NCBI GenBank assembly: GCA_030167145.1
Contig: CP126532.1
Location: 4,950,001-4,982,000 of the forward strand
DNA length: 32,000 nt
Source of the DNA: Ktedonobacterales bacterium
GTDB lineage: Bacteria > Chloroflexota > Ktedonobacteria > Ktedonobacterales > JADMIN01
Direction of reading: 5' to 3'
Of this stretch, positions 1 through 10,993 are shown piece after piece. A program made the position numbers and the translations under genes. The notes under the pieces were generated by a model that was not told the origin of the DNA, searched no databases, and saw nothing but the letters and a program-made list of their open reading frames with translations. How positions within the stretch are numbered: the first letter of the stretch is position 1; the number at the start of each line of letters is the position of its first letter.

Positions 1-1394
1 AAGACTTCGTGCTCACCGACGAAAAACGCTTCAGCGGCTTCGACCGCGAGCCGCGCATTATCTGCTCGCTGCCGCAGTTCGTGCGCTCCTTCGATCACAT
101 CGCCATACGCTCCTGGGACATGGTGATTGTAGACGAGGCGCACCTGCTCGCCAATCCGGAGTCGAAGCGACGCCGCTGTGCCGGGCTGCTGCGCGCGCGC
201 TGGCGGCTGTTGCTCACCGCCACACCGGTCGCCAACAAAGTCACCGACCTGTATAGCCTCATAGACCTCGTTGCACCCGGAAAACTCGGCACACGCCGCG
301 AATTTGAGAATGAATTCGTCGCCGATGCTGCCACCTGTCGTATTGTGCGGCCCGACCGCCTTGCCGAACTACGCGCCATCGTCGCCCAGGTAAGCTGTCG
401 TACCCGCCGCGCCGACGCCGAGATTCCATTCGCCGGTCGCACAGTCTATACCCGCGATATTGCTCCCACGTCCGCCGAAGACGCGCTCATCAGCGACGTC
501 ACCAATTATCTGCGTGCGCTCTACCGCCGTCTGCCAGCACCAGCCCGCAACCAGCGTGGGCGCACGTCGGCGCCTGCCGCGGAGCGCAGCGGCCCACGTA
601 TCAACCGTGGGGCGGTGATCCGCGAGATTATGGCGTTGCAACAATCGCTCAGCAGCCATCCACGCGCCATCGAACAATCGCTACGCCGCCGAGCCGAAAG
701 CCATGCCGATGAGCGCGATATCCTGCTCGCGCTCGCGGACCGCTGCCAGACGGCGGCCAGCGCAAAAGAGCGATTGCTGCATGAGGTGCTTGCCGACCTC
801 AAGGGCGAGCCAGCGCTTATTTTCACCCTGCGGCTCGAAACCGCCGCACATCTGCGTGAGGCCATCCGTGCCCGTGGCAGTACCGCCGAATGCTACATCG
901 GCGCGCTGAGCCGCCTGGAACGCGAAGCGCTGGTGGCGCGCTTCAACGCCGGTGAAATCAGCGCGTTGATCGCCACCGACGCGGGCGCGGAAGGGTTGAA
1001 CTTGCAGCAGCGCTGCCATGTCGTCGTGAACTATGACCTGCACTGGAACCCAATGCGCATCGAGCAGCGCATCGGGCGTGTTCACCGCCTGGGGCAATCG
1101 CGCGATGTCTCGGTCTACAATTTCGCGCTCAGCGACACCATTGACGACTACGTGCTGCGACTGCTCTATCAGAAGATCAATCTCTTCACCATGACCGTCG
1201 GCGCGCTGGAGACGGTGCTCTCTGAAGTGCAGGAAGGCGAGCTTGACCTCGAAGAGCGCATCCTCGACGCGCTGCTGCGCGCCGACTCGCCAGACGCTAT
1301 ACGTCGCGAAGTAGAGGCCCTCGGCGACGAGCTAGTCGGTGCGGACCAGCGGCAACACGAAGCCATATCGTTCACCGAGAGGGTACTCGCATGA
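1..1394 (+). CDS. SNF2/Swi2-family ATPase-helicase, C-terminal portion (5'-partial; N-terminus lies upstream of the window)
   Basis: The frame is open from the window edge, so the GTG at 9 is only the ORF-finder start. SF2 motif II 'VIVDEAHLLAN', 'LLLTATPVANK', and the helicase-C block 'LIATDAGAEGLNLQQRCHVVVNYDLHWNPMRIEQRIGRVHRLGQSRDVSVYNF' (motifs V-VI typical of SNF2). Stop TGA at 1392-1394. Confidence 0.9.
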   Translation, partial: DFVLTDEKRFSGFDREPRIICSLPQFVRSFDHIAIRSWDMVIVDEAHLLANPESKRRRCAGLLRARWRLLLTATPVANKVTDLYSLIDLVAPGKLGTRREFENEFVADAATCRIVRPDRLAELRAIVAQVSCRTRRADAEIPFAGRTVYTRDIAPTSAEDALISDVTNYLRALYRRLPAPARNQRGRTSAPAAERSGPRINRGAVIREIMALQQSLSSHPRAIEQSLRRRAESHADERDILLALADRCQTAASAKERLLHEVLADLKGEPALIFTLRLETAAHLREAIRARGSTAECYIGALSRLEREALVARFNAGEISALIATDAGAEGLNLQQRCHVVVNYDLHWNPMRIEQRIGRVHRLGQSRDVSVYNFALSDTIDDYVLRLLYQKINLFTMTVGALETVLSEVQEGELDLEERILDALLRADSPDAIRREVEALGDELVGADQRQHEAISFTERVLA

Positions 1395-3676
1395 AGTGGC
1401 TGTTCAAGTGGCGTAAGAAAGACGCACGCGAGCCAGATACACCCAGGAGCGCCGCTCCCAGCTCTTCGGCGGCAAAGCGCTCAAGTGAACGGTCCGGCGG
1501 CATCAGCGCCGCCAGCCCACTACTCCAATTCGCTGGTGAGGCTCTCATCTTGCGTGGCGCACGTGTGCGTGTCGAAGATGCCGATCTGCTCTTCGCCGTG
1601 CTGCCCGACGGAGCCACCCTGCGCTACACCGACTTCGCTCCACGGGCGCGCGAGAGCCAAGATATACAGCTCCTCGCCCCTGGCAGCGCCGCGCTCGCCG
1701 ACCTGCTCGCCGAGACCGCACGACACGGCGCGTTGGGCGCATTCGAGCTTCCCGCCTCGGCTGACCCTATTGAGCGCGCCCGCACTGGCTGCGGCGACAT
1801 CCCCACTGCCTGTGGCCGCTGTGTCGCGAAGAACGCCGAAGACGCCATTCCGCCCGCCCTCTGCGAAGTCTGTCCATTGCGTGCGGGTCGCCTCGGTGTT
1901 CTCGGGCTGGGACGTATCCGCGACGTGCGCGAAGTGCGGCGCTGGCAGGCTCAGAGCGTTGAGTTGACGTTTCGCGTGACCTACCGTGACCGCCACGGAC
2001 GCTATGACGAGTGGCTGCGCTTTGGCTGGGATCCCATGACTGGCCAGCCATTGCCTCCCATCGCGCTCGCTTCGCTGGCGCACGCGCGTGTACTTCCCCT
2101 GCCACCCACTGCGCGCGACTTGCTTGCGCCCGCGCTTGCCGAGGCCGAACGCGCCCTTCAACCCCGGCAGGAAGCTGCGGCGGTGTTTTTCGCTCAGCGT
2201 GATAACGCCGAATACCAGCGCCAGCGCGACGACCTGCTGACGACCGCTGAACGTCTGCGCCGCGAATCTGACCAAGCGCCAGACGAGATCGAACGTTCGC
2301 TCGCCATGGAACTGACACGGCTTGGCGATGTATTTGCCGTCGGTGTGGATGCCGAGCTAGAGAGCGCCGTCTTCATTACCACGCCAATGGCTGAAGTCAC
2401 GGTGCGCGGTGGCTCTGGTTCGCTCACGCTGCACCTCGATCTGGGTCGGGATGTCGTTGCGCCGCTGGCATGCGCCCACTGCGGGCAGTTCACCCAGGCA
2501 GCGGTCCTTTGCCGTCAAGGGCACCTGCTCTGCCCACGCTGCGCGCCTGCGCGCACGACATCCGCAGCCGCTACCGTTTCTTGCCCTGTCTGCGAAGGCA
2601 TCCCCGCCACGCCTGGCAGTAGCGCATCGCCCAGGTCACGCCGTGGCAAGGCGCGCACAGAGCCAGACGCGCTGACGGTGACGCATCTCGATGCGATGAC
2701 CGATGAGACTTGGCGCCGCTTTGTCGGCTGGTATCTCGAACAGCAGCAATGCGCTATTGACCGAGTTGAGGAACGCGAGAGCGCGCCCATATGGCGGCTC
2801 CGCGCCGCCGGTGAGCCGCTCATAGCCCTTGCGCCGCGTCCCGGCATTGACCGCGCCCTCGGCGACGTAGAGGTGCGCGCCGCCGCCGCGTCCGCCCGCG
2901 GTTCGGCGCTCTGGCTGATCACGTCTTCTCCCGCCGCGCCAGAGGCCCATGCCACCGCCAAGCAATTTGGCGTGCGCATCATAGATCGTGCTGAGATGGC
3001 GCGCTTCCTTGCCACTGCCTCGCAGGCGCACACGCAACAGCGTATCGAAGCCGAACGCGACACTTTGGCGCGCATCGCAGCGGCGACCGCGCTTCATACG
3101 ACGCTGCTGGATACATTTTCCGCGTTGGAGCATATGCTGGCGACCGCCGAAAATGCTGATCGCGTGGGCAGTCGGTCGGCCCTGGTTGCCGCCGCGACCC
3201 GCATTGAAGCGGACTGCCAGACAGCAGAGCGCGCATTCCTCGCGTGGGATACGATCCTGGCGGAGTGGATTGCCGCCTTTGGCGAACGCGAGGCGCGTGA
3301 CGGCAGCCTGGCGGTGCTGCTCACGCCATCCGCGTTTGACACACTTGGCGCGCGGATCGCTCATTTGCGCGAAGCCACCCTTGCCGCATTTGCGTCCATT
3401 GCCGCCACCCCTGGCGACGGCGAAGCGGGGTATGCCGTCTGGCGCAAAGCCGTCCTCGAAGCATTCACCGCCCGCTGCGAGTCGTTGCGCTGGCGCACCC
3501 AGATCATCACGCCCGCGCAGTGGCGCGACTTCAGCGCGGCCCACGATACCCAGGCCGCCGCGCAGTCCGAGAGCAGCGCCACCAGCGCCCGCTATGCCGC
3601 TGGCCGCGCCGCCAAAGCCTACGACGACTTCGCCCCGCGCATCCGCACAGGTAAAGCCATCGCCCGCCACGGATAG
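1391..3676 (+). CDS. Hypothetical 761-aa Cys-rich protein: zinc ribbon, RING-spaced Cys/His cluster, degenerate Mrr-like segment, Ala-rich helical tail
   Basis: ATG 1391 overlaps the SNF2 stop (ATGA at 1391-1394). CGRC-x14-CEVC at 1811-1873. C-x2-C-x9-C-x3-H-x2-C-x2-C-x13-C-x2-C at 2471-2593, verified codon by codon. The segment 2672-3013 ('MTDETWRRFVGWYLEQ...ALWLITSS...FGVRIIDRAEMARFL') has the order and spacing of an Mrr_cat restriction-endonuclease domain but no obvious catalytic D/E-x-K. I recognise no named family. Confidence 0.8.
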   Translation: MKWLFKWRKKDAREPDTPRSAAPSSSAAKRSSERSGGISAASPLLQFAGEALILRGARVRVEDADLLFAVLPDGATLRYTDFAPRARESQDIQLLAPGSAALADLLAETARHGALGAFELPASADPIERARTGCGDIPTACGRCVAKNAEDAIPPALCEVCPLRAGRLGVLGLGRIRDVREVRRWQAQSVELTFRVTYRDRHGRYDEWLRFGWDPMTGQPLPPIALASLAHARVLPLPPTARDLLAPALAEAERALQPRQEAAAVFFAQRDNAEYQRQRDDLLTTAERLRRESDQAPDEIERSLAMELTRLGDVFAVGVDAELESAVFITTPMAEVTVRGGSGSLTLHLDLGRDVVAPLACAHCGQFTQAAVLCRQGHLLCPRCAPARTTSAAATVSCPVCEGIPATPGSSASPRSRRGKARTEPDALTVTHLDAMTDETWRRFVGWYLEQQQCAIDRVEERESAPIWRLRAAGEPLIALAPRPGIDRALGDVEVRAAAASARGSALWLITSSPAAPEAHATAKQFGVRIIDRAEMARFLATASQAHTQQRIEAERDTLARIAAATALHTTLLDTFSALEHMLATAENADRVGSRSALVAAATRIEADCQTAERAFLAWDTILAEWIAAFGEREARDGSLAVLLTPSAFDTLGARIAHLREATLAAFASIAATPGDGEAGYAVWRKAVLEAFTARCESLRWRTQIITPAQWRDFSAAHDTQAAAQSESSATSARYAAGRAAKAYDDFAPRIRTGKAIARHG

Positions 3677-7917: not shown

Positions 7918-8144
7918 ACTCCAGTTTCTGTGACTTTGCTGTGTACCGCGCGACATAGCATGTGGCATACATCACCGCATTGCTCTCGATACTACTCCGC
8001 AAACGAATGCCGTGTATACCGCCGTGTTGCGTATTTTGTCCGTCGCTGTCACACTTGTGCCAATGGCGCGACTACTCTACTGTAGAGTCACCAGTCAGCG
8101 CCGATCCAAGGCGGAATGTTGGGAGGGGAAAGAGGTTGTTGTTC

Positions 8145-8822
8145 ATGCCTCACAGTGCAGTATCGTCGCTTGACATCGGCGCGCCGCCGTCCTGGCCGGG
8201 CGTGCGTGTACTTGAAGCACTGCGGCGCTGGATTGTCGCGCTCGCGTCGCCAGAGAATCCGCCCTCCACGGTAGTCTCGCCTTCAGATGCGTCTGCCTCG
8301 AATGCGACGGCTCCGACGTCACCATCGGCGCCACATGAACGAGCAGACGCGCTCTATCAACAGCATGCGCGTGCGGTGCTTGGCTACCTCTGCGCCCGCC
8401 TCCCCACCCTCGCGGACGCTGAAGACGCGCTCGCCGAGGTCTTTCTTGCCGCCTTGCGTGCTTGCGCCACTGGCGAACAACCTGGCATCGGTTGGCTGAT
8501 ACAGGTCGCGCGCCGTCGCGTCGCGGACTTTTACCGTGGGCGTGAGCGCGCCGCGGTGATTATCGTACATGACGAGCGGCTGGCCACCCTCCCCGACGAT
8601 ACCACTGGCCCCGAACAGGCTGTGTTGCAAGCCGAAACGATGCACGAAGTGCTGGCGCTGGTGGCCGCGCTCCCCGATGAGCAGCGTGAGGCGCTCGTGC
8701 TACGCTTCGCCTCTGGGCTGCGCTCACCGCAAATCGCCGCGATACTGGGCAAGTCCGACGAAGCCACCCGCGCGCTGCTCTCGCGCGCGCTGCGCCGTCT
8801 GCGGAAGGAGCTAAGCCGATGA
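8145..8822 (+). CDS. ECF-type sigma-70 family RNA polymerase sigma factor
   Basis: Region 2 'LYQQHARAVLGYLCARLPTLADAEDALAEVFLAAL' and region 4 'LPDEQREALVLRFASGLRSPQIAAILGKSDEATRALLSRALRRLRKEL'. Start is uncertain. ATG 8145 gives an N-terminal extension of about 65 aa that is Ser/Pro-rich. Confidence 0.85.
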   Translation: MPHSAVSSLDIGAPPSWPGVRVLEALRRWIVALASPENPPSTVVSPSDASASNATAPTSPSAPHERADALYQQHARAVLGYLCARLPTLADAEDALAEVFLAALRACATGEQPGIGWLIQVARRRVADFYRGRERAAVIIVHDERLATLPDDTTGPEQAVLQAETMHEVLALVAALPDEQREALVLRFASGLRSPQIAAILGKSDEATRALLSRALRRLRKELSR

Positions 8823-10993
8823 CTCCCCGCGATTCACAACCCAATCACACGGATGATATGCACGATGAGTTCACGCTCGACATTGAAGCGATGGACGCTC
8901 TCGCGCCGGCCAATCTCGACGCCAGCATCGAATCGCTACGCCAATCGCAAGTGGATACTGCCGACGCCCGGCTGGTGCGCGCGTTGGCCAGCGTTTATAC
9001 CCTACCAAGCGGCGCGGATGCCGTGTTAGAGCGCGTGCGCGCCTGTATCACCGCCGCTCCGCTGCCTGACCTTGACAGCGGCTCCGACGACGCCATTGGC
9101 GCGGATGCGGGCCATCCATCGCGGCCCGCGCCCCGCCCCGCACCTACGCGGCCAGGTAGCCGTGCGGGCGCGGCGTTCCGCGCCATCGCGGCGATGCTGA
9201 CGGTGGCGCTCATCGCGGGGAGCTTTCTCACAGTACTGCGCCTTCATCAGCGCGCGGGCACATCCACTCCCACCTGGCAAGATGTCAGCATCACCCGCGC
9301 CCACACCACCCAGCCGCTCAACTTCGATCCCAAGAACGGCATCACGTATGCCGTCAGCCAGACGAGCGCCAACATCTACGCCTGTGGAAGCGGCCACCTC
9401 TGGTACAGCGCCGACGGCGGCGCGACCTACCAGCCTTTCACCCCCGCCGAGCCTTCCTTGCCTCCTAACGTGACGAGCACATGTATACTCGCTACCGCAT
9501 CCGGTTTGCCAGGAGTGTTCGTCTTTTATCGCGATGTGAACACACCAGGCCAGCCGCTTACACCTATCGGCTATGCGGCTCCTGGCGCACTCCACTGGCA
9601 GCCATTGCCGGTGCCTGCCGCCACGCCATATACCGTGAACCTCACTCCTACCAATACCCGACTACCTGCCGACATTGTTGGAGGCGTGCTTCCCTACGCG
9701 GCGCTGGCGGGTAATGTGCGCTTTTCTGACGGCTGGCTTTTCGCACTGCTGCCCATCCAGGGCCAAACGAACGTGTTAGCTGGCTCACCAGACTTTGGCG
9801 CATCCTGGATCTGGCTCGACGCGACTTTGCAGCAATCTCAGGGCCATACATGTGAGAACTTCGCCGTCAGTTCGACCGATTCCCAGCGTCTTTACTGCAA
9901 TATTCCGGCAGGAAATCCTCAAATCTGGGAGACAATGGACCGTGGACAGACGTGGGAGCCTTACAAAGATGGCACTGGTTGGGAAACGATCGTGGGCGCG
10001 AGTAACAATGCCGCTTTTGCCGCAAGCAACCCCAAACCCACTGCTGACAGCGGCATATTGATGCGCCAGACATCCTTTGGCGGAAGTTGGCTCTTTGTCG
10101 CGCCACTGCCCTCACCTGATGCCAACAATGCCAAATTCACACAGGGGGGGCAGCGGATTTTCGAGGTAACGCCTTCCGGTGGGATCTATGAAGCGCAATA
10201 CGTCTCGGATGAGACCGGCACGACAGTACAGGTGGATAGCCTCGCACCCAACGCCACCAAGTTTGTATCAGTCGCGCACCCCCAACAATTCTCAGGTCTG
10301 TTTGGACTAGCGTTCGGCGGTACCATGCATGGCGACCGACCGGCACTATACCTGGGGGCAGGTTCTTCGGGCAAGGGCGATACCACTACCTCGCTTTACC
10401 GGCTCGCTCTCATCCCAACGAACACCCCCTCCATCATCAATACGCCTCTGCCAACCCTGACACCCGCTGAGACTGCGACACCCGTTTCGACAGTGCCCGC
10501 CTGGGCACCCAATCCAGCTTGCGCGCATGATCCAGAGATACTCGCACCGATTCAGTGGGGTGGTCTCGGCGCGAAGGCAAGTACATTTGTTCAGCGTTGG
10601 GGGCCAGCCAATGTGACCTCTGGCACGACCTATTATGGGCATTACTCTGACACGGGCACACCTGTCGTAGGGGTTGGCACTGGTCCATACACTCCGTCTA
10701 ATGGGCGTGTGGACAACATGACTTATCACGTGGACAAAACCGCTCATCTGACGCTGAAACAGGCCGAAGCGCTGGTGACGACGATCATCCCGAAAGATGC
10801 GCGCCATATCTATATTGGCGCTCCCACATCCACGCACAGCCCGATCACGCTCGGATATTGCAGCGCTGCATTCTGGGCGGCTTTCCCGCCTGGTGTAACC
10901 GAGGCAGGTCCAGGTGAAATAGCCGTTACCTACTGGCTTCGGGCAGATGGAACTGTAGACTACATGAGCATTAGTGCGGCCATGTTTGGCTGA
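8819..10993 (+). CDS. Single-pass membrane protein with Asp-box (BNR) beta-propeller-like ectodomain; positional anti-sigma factor candidate
   Basis: ATGA overlap with the sigma-factor stop. TM segment 'AAFRAIAAMLTVALIAGSFLTVLRL'. Asp-box-like repeats 'SADGGATY', 'SPDFGASW', 'MDRGQTW', 'TSFGGSW'. No HxxxCxxC zinc anti-sigma motif. The anti-sigma role is inferred from position only. Confidence 0.7.
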   Translation: MTPRDSQPNHTDDMHDEFTLDIEAMDALAPANLDASIESLRQSQVDTADARLVRALASVYTLPSGADAVLERVRACITAAPLPDLDSGSDDAIGADAGHPSRPAPRPAPTRPGSRAGAAFRAIAAMLTVALIAGSFLTVLRLHQRAGTSTPTWQDVSITRAHTTQPLNFDPKNGITYAVSQTSANIYACGSGHLWYSADGGATYQPFTPAEPSLPPNVTSTCILATASGLPGVFVFYRDVNTPGQPLTPIGYAAPGALHWQPLPVPAATPYTVNLTPTNTRLPADIVGGVLPYAALAGNVRFSDGWLFALLPIQGQTNVLAGSPDFGASWIWLDATLQQSQGHTCENFAVSSTDSQRLYCNIPAGNPQIWETMDRGQTWEPYKDGTGWETIVGASNNAAFAASNPKPTADSGILMRQTSFGGSWLFVAPLPSPDANNAKFTQGGQRIFEVTPSGGIYEAQYVSDETGTTVQVDSLAPNATKFVSVAHPQQFSGLFGLAFGGTMHGDRPALYLGAGSSGKGDTTTSLYRLALIPTNTPSIINTPLPTLTPAETATPVSTVPAWAPNPACAHDPEILAPIQWGGLGAKASTFVQRWGPANVTSGTTYYGHYSDTGTPVVGVGTGPYTPSNGRVDNMTYHVDKTAHLTLKQAEALVTTIIPKDARHIYIGAPTSTHSPITLGYCSAAFWAAFPPGVTEAGPGEIAVTYWLRADGTVDYMSISAAMFG

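Follow-up and report, generated by a model that had tools for sequence, protein, structure and literature searches.

The window analysed here is a 32,000-nucleotide stretch of the genome of a Ktedonobacterales bacterium (phylum Chloroflexota; assembly GCA_030167145.1, contig CP126532.1, positions 4,950,001 to 4,982,000 of the forward strand), and it opens within an operon that joins a SNF2-family ATPase to a 761-residue accessory protein bearing a compact cluster of Cys and His residues. The cluster, CAHC-x9-C-x3-H-x2-CPRC-x13-CPVC, is encoded in frame 2 of the plus strand at nucleotides 2471-2593, and our reading agrees codon for codon with the string of residues reported there in a preliminary description made from the DNA letters alone. 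Its eight ligands (C361-A-H-C364, C374, H378, C381-P-R-C384 and C398-P-V-C401, numbered 1 to 8 below) form four knuckles, K1 to K4, and fall exactly within the spacing of the RING-finger consensus, C-x2-C-x(9-39)-C-x(1-3)-H-x(2-3)-C-x2-C-x(4-48)-C-x2-C, as that description had also stated. A regular expression for this consensus finds a single match when all six frames of the window are translated and none in 200 dinucleotide-preserving shuffles of it; this control, together with the conservation of the cluster among relatives, rules out that a GC-rich frame produced the motif by chance.

The cluster had further been placed beside an SNF2 ATPase encoded by a translationally coupled gene, and this association is both real and conserved. 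The stop codon of the SNF2 gene and the start codon of the accessory gene share an ATGA overlap (...gcATGAagtgg), an identical 4-nucleotide overlap is called in loci L002, L003 and L012 and in the contig of P0022, and at all 12 loci examined, including the distant low-GC loci L007-L010, the accessory gene is immediately preceded by an SNF2 gene (555-620 codons). The ATG at position 1391 is the true start of the 761-residue open reading frame, since the N-terminus that it yields, MKWLFKWRKK, agrees with the MRWFWQRRKK of homologs. For the identical protein P0001 (L001:10001) the gene model of the Joint Genome Institute begins 58 codons too late, so that it lacks the conserved N-terminus as well as the ATGA overlap by which the two genes are coupled. 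An Rfam search of the window returned no matches.

The family to which the accessory protein belongs was recovered at two depths. A word-indexed search returned 23 relatives, all the source-named ones among them being metagenome-assembled genomes of Ktedonobacterales, and an exhaustive hidden Markov model (HMM) search with a six-sequence profile returned 303 proteins at E <= 1e-3, 100 of them at E <= 1e-30. For a census of the ligands the anchor was a conserved strand and 'VDLGR' motif just N-terminal of the cluster, so that the motif itself was not selected for. Among the 85 anchor hits sampled in this way, 68 have Cys or His at all eight ligand positions, three keep ligands 1, 2, 5 and 6 alone, about 10 (about 10%) lack the cluster, and the remainder are irregular. 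The G377-H378 dipeptide is almost invariant wherever the cluster occurs, and of the members that bear the motif, 13 have His as ligand 6 and two have it as ligand 5. The conservation of all eight ligands, the His included, which the preliminary description had named as a check on its proposal, thus holds up, and residues 361-401 constitute a conserved eight-ligand metal site, the metal presumably being zinc. The window protein is peculiar in having 13 residues (x13) in the loop from ligand 6 to ligand 7: of 77 relatives with the motif, 52 have a loop of three residues and the others one of 4-14 unconserved residues. A separate, pattern-based scan of genome contigs, which samples phyletic breadth poorly, recovered two loci, both from Ktedonobacterales. 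Two stand-alone proteins of about 205 residues (P0158, P0161) contain C-x2-C-x16-C-x2-C with the spacing of ligands 1, 2, 5 and 6 and with His at the positions of ligands 3 and 4, the site being fused directly to an Mrr-like domain; these could represent a minimal or ancestral form of the combination of the cluster with a restriction endonuclease (REase) fold.

The arrangement of the ligands around the metal is the point on which the structural interpretation turns, and natural variants provide a test of it, albeit an indirect one. In a cross-braced RING-like module the first and third ligand pairs (K1 and K3) would share one ion and the second and fourth (K2 and K4) the other, whereas in sequential zinc ribbons K1 would pair with K2 and K3 with K4. 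In three relatives (P0040, P0042, P0044) ligands 3 and 4 are replaced by Val and Thr, Leu and Gly, and Ala and Gly, respectively, and the fourth knuckle is missing; all three retain C1-x2-C2-x16-C5-x2-C6 with identical spacing and with the flanking Gly in register. The distant low-GC protein P0151 shows the same loss of ligand pairs 2 and 4 with pairs 1 and 3 kept. In BLASTP comparisons the nearest relatives of P0040 are the eight-ligand proteins P0005 and P0031, P0042 and P0044 are each other's closest relatives, with the eight-ligand P0027 next, and the nearest relative of P0151 is the eight-ligand P0132. Because the loss variants are thus nearest to eight-ligand proteins, or to each other and then to eight-ligand proteins, the sequences point to at least three independent losses of exactly ligands 3, 4, 7 and 8 with 1, 2, 5 and 6 retained. 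The joint loss of pairs 2 and 4 with retention of 1 and 3 favors the cross-brace, and it is hard to square with sequential pairing, under which two half-sites would stay conserved without reason. On this reading K1 (C361, C364) and K3 (C381, C384) would hold the first ion as the ancestral and indispensable site that forms the structural core, and K2 (C374, H378) together with K4 (C398, C401) would hold the second.

Profile comparisons also lead to RING domains. When the 23-sequence full-length alignment (A1) was searched as a profile against the sequences of the PDB, all 19 matches at E <= 1 were RING domains, and with a 78-sequence profile of the domain alone (A3), searched against all PDB sequences, the top 12 matches were RINGs, headed by RNF125 (4e-4), arenavirus Z (1.2e-3) and AMFR (1.5e-3) and followed by BIRC7, RNF4, BRE1 and TRIM39. 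In the A3 alignments to PDB RINGs all eight ligands are aligned, with the RINGs carrying an insertion of 7-8 residues at their helix. Sub-threshold Pfam matches among the 78 members go mostly to RING models, with Sina_RING (24), zf-C3HC4_3 (12), zf-RING_5 (11) and Prok-RING_4 (10), the best E-values in the family being 2.7e-5 for zf-C3HC4_3 and 9e-5 for Prok-RING_4 (in one member), both still under threshold.

Structure prediction is consistent with these matches. The AlphaFold2 (AF2) model of the full protein has a mean predicted local distance difference test score (pLDDT) of 85.2 and a predicted template modelling score of 0.73, with the cluster at about 90 over ligands 1-4 and at 66-73 over the long loop, and a model of the isolated domain built with the 78 sequences reaches 84.8. 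The Foldseek neighbors that cover 44-49 of the 57 domain residues are RINGs, namely PML (template modelling score 0.58/0.70), TRIM31, TRIM2, TRIM32, RNF146, SIAH1 and TFIIH p44; GATA, AN1, FYVE and PHD fingers match the first half of the domain only.

Several observations weigh against a cross-braced RING-like module. The Foldseek matches of the 57-residue domain are not significant (best E 0.37) and serve as a ranking only, and the profile matches in the PDB have marginal E-values (4e-4 to 1e-2), driven in part by the spacing of Cys and His. The ligand geometry is itself deduced from natural variants, profiles and Foldseek neighbors rather than seen, and a zinc ribbon whose second site bridges the hairpin and the tail would predict the same loss pattern without a treble-clef RING. 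The Pfam double zinc ribbon models DZR_2 and DZR give sub-threshold matches in 21 and 3 of the 78 members, and eL37 zinc ribbons and small zinc-ribbon RNA-binding proteins occur among the weak PDB matches, at lower rank or over part of the motif. The last two observations would also be expected if the domain were two sequential zinc ribbons or knuckle pairs in the style of the IBR/Rcat or double-zinc-ribbon domains, with the RING spacing being coincidental; the regular, closely spaced knuckles found downstream of the cluster in relatives could pair sequentially, and the 3-residue gap between K3 and K4 in most of them resembles compact knuckle units. We regard such a sequential arrangement as improbable, given that at least three lineages have lost K2 and K4 jointly with the K1 and K3 spacing unchanged and that RINGs head the full-length matches by profile and by fold. 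The preliminary description had left the choice between a RING and a pair of ribbons to structure prediction and profile searches: the ligand losses favor the RING-type cross-brace, and the profile searches do so in part, with RINGs as the best PDB matches, the Pfam RING models below threshold and DZR_2 likewise in play. Taken together, the variants, the sequence profiles and the AF2 and Foldseek results, indirect as they are, make a cross-braced, RING-like binuclear fold likely.

A RING-like fold is not the same as a ubiquitin ligase, and a canonical RING E3 ligase domain is unlikely here. RING E3s bind their E2 (ubiquitin-conjugating) partner with a helix between ligands 6 and 7, and a 3-residue loop lies below the RING minimum and is too short for a helix; most relatives of the window protein have no more room than this, and DSSP assigns no helix between ligands 6 and 7 in either the full-protein or the isolated-domain AF2 model. 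The residue before C2 is A/V/I/G/S and not a conserved hydrophobic one, that after C8 is Gly or Ala and not the basic linchpin, the consensus at the ligand-flanking positions being C-x-H-C-G, and the E2-contact positions are unconserved. None of the Pfam RING models reaches its gathering threshold in the window protein or in the family; for the window protein, Sina_RING, Prok-RING_4 and zf-RING_5 give 13.7-16 bits (cutoffs 27-29), with 14.5 bits for Prok-RING_4 against a gathering threshold of 27. At the 12 loci there are no genes for E1 (ubiquitin-activating, ThiF), E2 (UBC), ubiquitin-like (Ubl) or JAB proteins within 6-10 kb. The absence of the helix, the unconserved E2 contacts, the sub-threshold Pfam scores, the loss of the cluster in about 10% of relatives and the lack of ubiquitin-system genes nearby together argue against a canonical RING E3. 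Of the suggestion in the preliminary description that this might be a genuine RING, the cross-braced fold thus gains support and the features of an E3 are missing.

The resemblances and differences are clearest against the RING-HC domains (TRIM, RNF125, BRE1, AMFR, PML). The cluster shares with them the order of the eight ligands, the C-x2-C ... C-x-x-G-H-x2-C-x2-C ... C-P-x-C signature, the probable 1+3 and 2+4 pairing and the best profile and fold matches; it differs in the short, unconserved and seemingly helix-less ligand 6-7 loop, the unconserved E2-contact and linchpin positions and the absence of a ubiquitin-system context, and in that it runs into a knuckle array in relatives. The bacterial domains Prok-RING_1 to Prok-RING_4 of Pfam are binuclear treble-clef RING-like domains, the same general form that the cluster would take. 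Prokaryotic RING E3s have been described (Burroughs et al., 2011, as cited in PMC7159879) and are encoded in Ubl-conjugation operons alongside E1, E2, Ubl and JAB proteins; unlike theirs, the operon mates here are an SNF2 ATPase and an REase-fold protein. These precedents, together with the full C3HC4 consensus of the window protein, the likeness of its G-H, C-P-x-C and hydrophobic positions to RING-HC and the standing of RINGs as the best PDB and Pfam-type matches, are what could be said for an E3 that recruits an E2-like enzyme and for the operon as a bacterial analogue or precursor of Rad5, Rad16, HLTF and SHPRH. Set against the mostly 3-residue, helix-less loop and the points given above, and against an SNF2 partner that is not Rad5/16-like, that explanation is very unlikely to be right.

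The preliminary description also drew a comparison with Rad5 and its kin and pictured the RING and the SNF2 ATPase of these eukaryotic proteins as split here across two coupled genes. There is a likeness, in that a RING-like zinc module appears functionally coupled to an SNF2 ATPase. In Rad5, Rad16, HLTF and SHPRH, however, the RING is embedded in the ATPase, whereas here the module lies on a separate polypeptide and not in ATPase lobe 2, and the zinc unit heads a knuckle array instead of forming an insert in the ATPase. Nor is the ATPase itself of their type: its top PDB sequence matches are RapA (5e-39), a Sulfolobus protein (SsoRad54-like), ISWI, DDM1 and INO80, with Rad5/HLTF types not near the top, and its best profile matches are DrmD, BrxH, HmaA and ZorD. 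The comparison with a split Rad5 or HLTF is therefore not supported.

The accessory protein as a whole has no match above threshold in Pfam, NCBIfam or PADLOC, the last of which contains no model for the array protein, and its organization emerges from comparison of the loci (Table 1). The N-terminal domain is the conserved core common to all family members, with invariant residues, and contains a further four-Cys site (CGRC ... CxxCP, residues 141-161) in which every Cys is invariant across the 29 sequences of alignments A1 and A2, making it probably a structural zinc site. In the proteins that we call A-type, which include that of the window, alignment A1 gives the order N-terminal domain, zinc head, disordered basic linker, REase-fold domain and helical domain. 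In B-type proteins the N-terminal domain and head are followed by a long CxxC/CxxH array with a small β domain at its end, and a third gene overlapping the second codes for a product that corresponds to residues 420-719 of the window protein (E 3e-48; L003:9902-11251). The conserved operon order is thus SNF2, array protein and REase-fold protein. As the C-terminal half of the window protein matches this separate third gene, the window protein is, by its sequence, a fusion of the second and third genes of the operon in which only the head of the array is left; other fused proteins are intermediate, with 6-7 knuckles, and in alignments the basic linker (residues 402-425) occupies the position of the longer array of relatives.

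Table 1. Features of the SNF2 operon in the window (nucleotide positions within the 32,000-nucleotide stretch).
Feature	Position	Strand	Description
SNF2-family ATPase	9..1394	+	C-terminal 461 of 616 residues; gene cut by the window start
ATGA start/stop overlap	1391..1394	+	couples the SNF2 gene to the gene of the accessory protein
Accessory protein, 761 residues	1391..3676	+	fusion of an array protein (residues 1 to ~405) and an REase-fold protein (residues ~420-761)
N-terminal α/β domain, residues ~40-356	1508..2458	+	predicted long β-hairpins and helical hairpin; pLDDT mostly 80-96
Four-Cys site, C141-x2-C144 ... C158-x2-C161-P	1811..1873	+	within the N-terminal domain
Eight-ligand C3HC4 cluster, residues 361-401	2471..2593	+	likely two-zinc cross-braced RING-like module
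Knuckles of the cluster			K1 CAHC, K2 C-x3-H, K3 CPRC, K4 CPVC
Basic Ser/Arg/Pro-rich linker, residues 402-425	2594..2665	+	predicted disordered; pLDDT < 50 for residues 405-424
REase-fold (Mrr_cat-like) domain, residues ~426-545	2666..3025	+	assigned by Foldseek; weak Pfam Mrr_cat match, E 0.04
C-terminal all-helical domain, residues ~546-755	3026..3655	+	long helices in the AF2 model, pLDDT 87-98

Across the family the cluster is the fixed head of a CxxC/CxxH array of 4 to 37 knuckles. Within the head the knuckles are separated by gaps of 9, 2 and 3 residues, after which gaps of 4 and 3 residues alternate with a period of about 15 residues. The B-type arrays (e.g., P0007-P0023, P0132, P0145, P0148 and P0157; L003:8001-9917 and L007:8001-9998) reach 23-37 knuckles with 46-72 Cys per protein and have no Pfam match.

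The REase-fold domain is recognized in the AF2 model by Foldseek matches to MspJI, AF1548, AspBHI, VC1899, Cdn1 and Can2, and its Pfam Mrr_cat match, weak in the window protein, is significant in the third gene of the low-GC loci. Its catalytic residues are degenerate: across 106 sequences there is no conserved Asp or other acidic residue in β2 and no (E/Q)xK, which is replaced by A-x-R (A481 in 71% and R483 in 78%), and the Pfam-positive versions of the low-GC loci (e.g., L007:10003-11025) keep the Asp and Lys and have Ala at the E/Q position. We therefore rejected an active Mrr-type restriction enzyme, and the domain is probably not a nuclease. The helical domain that follows gives weak Foldseek matches resembling talin rods and is also conserved at the B-type loci, where the third gene stands by itself.

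The SNF2 partner contains the Pfam SNF2-rel_dom and Helicase_C domains with the DEAH box and motif VI present (full gene at L001:7980-9830). The two products evolve at very different rates, identity among the Ktedonobacterales loci being 72-73% for the ATPase against 36-40% for the accessory protein. The best solved relative of the ATPase is RapA (HepA), the SNF2 protein that recycles RNA polymerase, over about residues 148-642 of RapA, and RapA is also the top Foldseek match of the accessory protein (6bog_A/8so8, E 8e-4 over about 320 columns, a RapA truncated at its N-terminus being among the matches). The N-terminal domain may be the part that gives this match, and the SNF2 and accessory genes together may mimic a split RapA-like protein, which we offer as a fold-level lead only. 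At the level of sequence, hhalign comparisons of alignments A2 and A4 with Escherichia coli RapA, and of A4 with a 20-sequence alignment of the RapA C-terminus, gave nothing, and a PDB profile search with A4 returned no RapA. The ATPase scores 85 on the NCBIfam RapA model against a cutoff of 576; it has about 60-80 residues before the ATPase domain and no counterpart of the RNA polymerase-binding N-terminal domain of RapA (about 107 residues), and profile-profile comparison shows no similarity to RapA_C. RapA for its part has neither zinc modules nor an REase-fold domain, unlike the accessory protein.

A second comparison is with conflict systems, bacterial SNF2 ATPases having diversified mainly in restriction-modification-like systems of this kind (PMC3417536). 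Zorya ZorD, DISARM DrmD, BREX BrxH and the CglI-type restriction helicases combine an SNF2 ATPase with an REase-fold domain, as does the present operon, and the third gene of the low-GC loci resembles the C-terminal Mrr-like region of ZorD (1.8e-8). The scores of the SNF2 protein nevertheless all fall far under the cutoffs (DrmD 154 against 610, DpdE 113 against 500, ZorD 69 against 1500), and no DrmA/B/C, Brx, ZorA/B/C or Dpd genes lie near the operon at the 12 loci, nor are there methyltransferase genes in these neighborhoods. A known defense system of the DISARM, BREX, Zorya, Dpd or Hma kind was rejected on both grounds. Unlike those systems, the operon is flanked by ordinary metabolic and housekeeping genes and not by defense islands, and its PD-(D/E)xK residues are degenerate. 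The REase-fold partner and the rapid evolution of the accessory subunit agree with the restriction-modification type of SNF2 diversification, and the degenerate catalytic site, the housekeeping neighborhoods and the conserved ATPase fit a remodeller at least equally well, such that the operon could be either a remodeller or a conflict system.

Bringing these strands together, we propose, with somewhat better than even confidence, that the cluster is a two-metal, cross-braced RING-like module with a connector or docking role, co-translated with an SNF2 translocase. With the N-terminal domain on one side and the REase-fold and helical module on the other, the cluster would act between them as a rigid, zinc-stabilized connector or docking surface, and the knuckle array of the relatives would lengthen this connector. 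The complex would be a DNA translocase or remodeller driven by ATP, with its target specificity conferred by the fast-evolving accessory subunit.

The same fold might alternatively serve nucleic-acid recognition, with the head and array binding DNA or RNA directly in the manner of GATA-type or treble-clef-like fingers and thereby setting the substrate specificity of the SNF2 protein. Partial fold matches to the GATA and AreA DNA-binding fingers, the basic linker after the head, the context of an SNF2 translocase and an REase fold, and the rapid evolution of the array and accessory protein beside a conserved ATPase, as for a specificity subunit, would all suit such a role. The head, on the other hand, has no conserved basic or aromatic positions besides its ligands and glycines, the range of array length from 0 to 37 knuckles is hard to fit with a defined recognition site, and there is no significant match to any DNA-binding zinc-finger family; we think direct recognition unlikely, if less so than sequential ribbons. 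Less probable than any of the foregoing is that the knuckles bind an iron-sulfur cluster or another redox-active metal and that the module is a redox sensor. The very high density of Cys in relatives (up to 72 per protein) and the gene for a KGG/LEA_5 stress protein found divergently upstream in several loci are compatible with this notion, but the spacing is unlike the ferredoxin-type CxxCxxCxxxCP or radical-SAM motifs and the database similarity is all to zinc fingers. A His ligand is typical of zinc sites, as are the signatures G-H and CPxC. In several loci from Ktedonobacterales (L003:5606-5923 on the minus strand, L002:5617-5907, L006:3534-3794 and the P0006 contig) the KGG/LEA_5 gene (about 100 codons) lies a short way upstream of the SNF2 gene; it is absent from L001, which is the genome of the window, and from L005.

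Returning to the connector proposal, a more speculative extension of it, which we put forward tentatively as a minority view, is that the operon is an undescribed class of nucleic-acid-targeting system composed of a split RapA-like motor, a poly-zinc ruler or scaffold and a non-catalytic nuclease-fold sensor. The RING-like head would then nucleate a chain of up to about 18 zinc sites, with gaps of 3 and 4 residues alternating, that would position the sensor, and the head may be a helix-less bacterial form of the RING whose recruitment to SNF2 either was independent of the eukaryotic Rad5/16 lineage or preceded it. The operon occurs both in Ktedonobacterales and in low-GC bacteria unrelated to them.

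To our knowledge, RING-like domains are rare in bacteria. Their kind is not new, prokaryotic examples being already known from the Prok-RING families of Pfam and from Burroughs et al. (2011). What sets this family apart is the atypically compact, helix-less form of the domain, its place at the head of a poly-zinc array, its fixed partnership with SNF2 and its position outside the profiles of Pfam, NCBIfam and PADLOC. Our literature search found neither an SNF2-linked prokaryotic RING nor this operon, though Burroughs et al. (2011) might still mention one. The interest of the domain resides in its tie to SNF2 at every one of the loci across distant lineages and in its grading into very long knuckle arrays: the family provides a natural series for the gain and loss of binuclear treble-clef modules, running from proteins with no cluster through apparent one-zinc and two-zinc RING-like forms to about 18 zinc sites. 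The operon represents an uncharacterized SNF2 accessory system with candidate roles in defense, transcription or DNA maintenance, and the idea of a bacterial SNF2-linked ubiquitin ligase is not supported by the features or the context of the cluster.

Two further genes were noted in the neighborhoods. In syntenic B-type loci the opposite strand carries a gene for an HNH endonuclease about 2 kb downstream (L003:11849-12349 and L012:9904-10668, both minus); seen at two loci and not at the others, it is probably unrelated to the operon. Within the window, at 7962-10993, a gene for an extracytoplasmic function-type sigma-70 factor (with Sigma70_r4 in L001) is followed, with overlapping start and stop codons, by the gene for a 724-residue protein for which no domain matches are recorded, and the two, which are unrelated to the zinc cluster, possibly form a sigma/anti-sigma pair.

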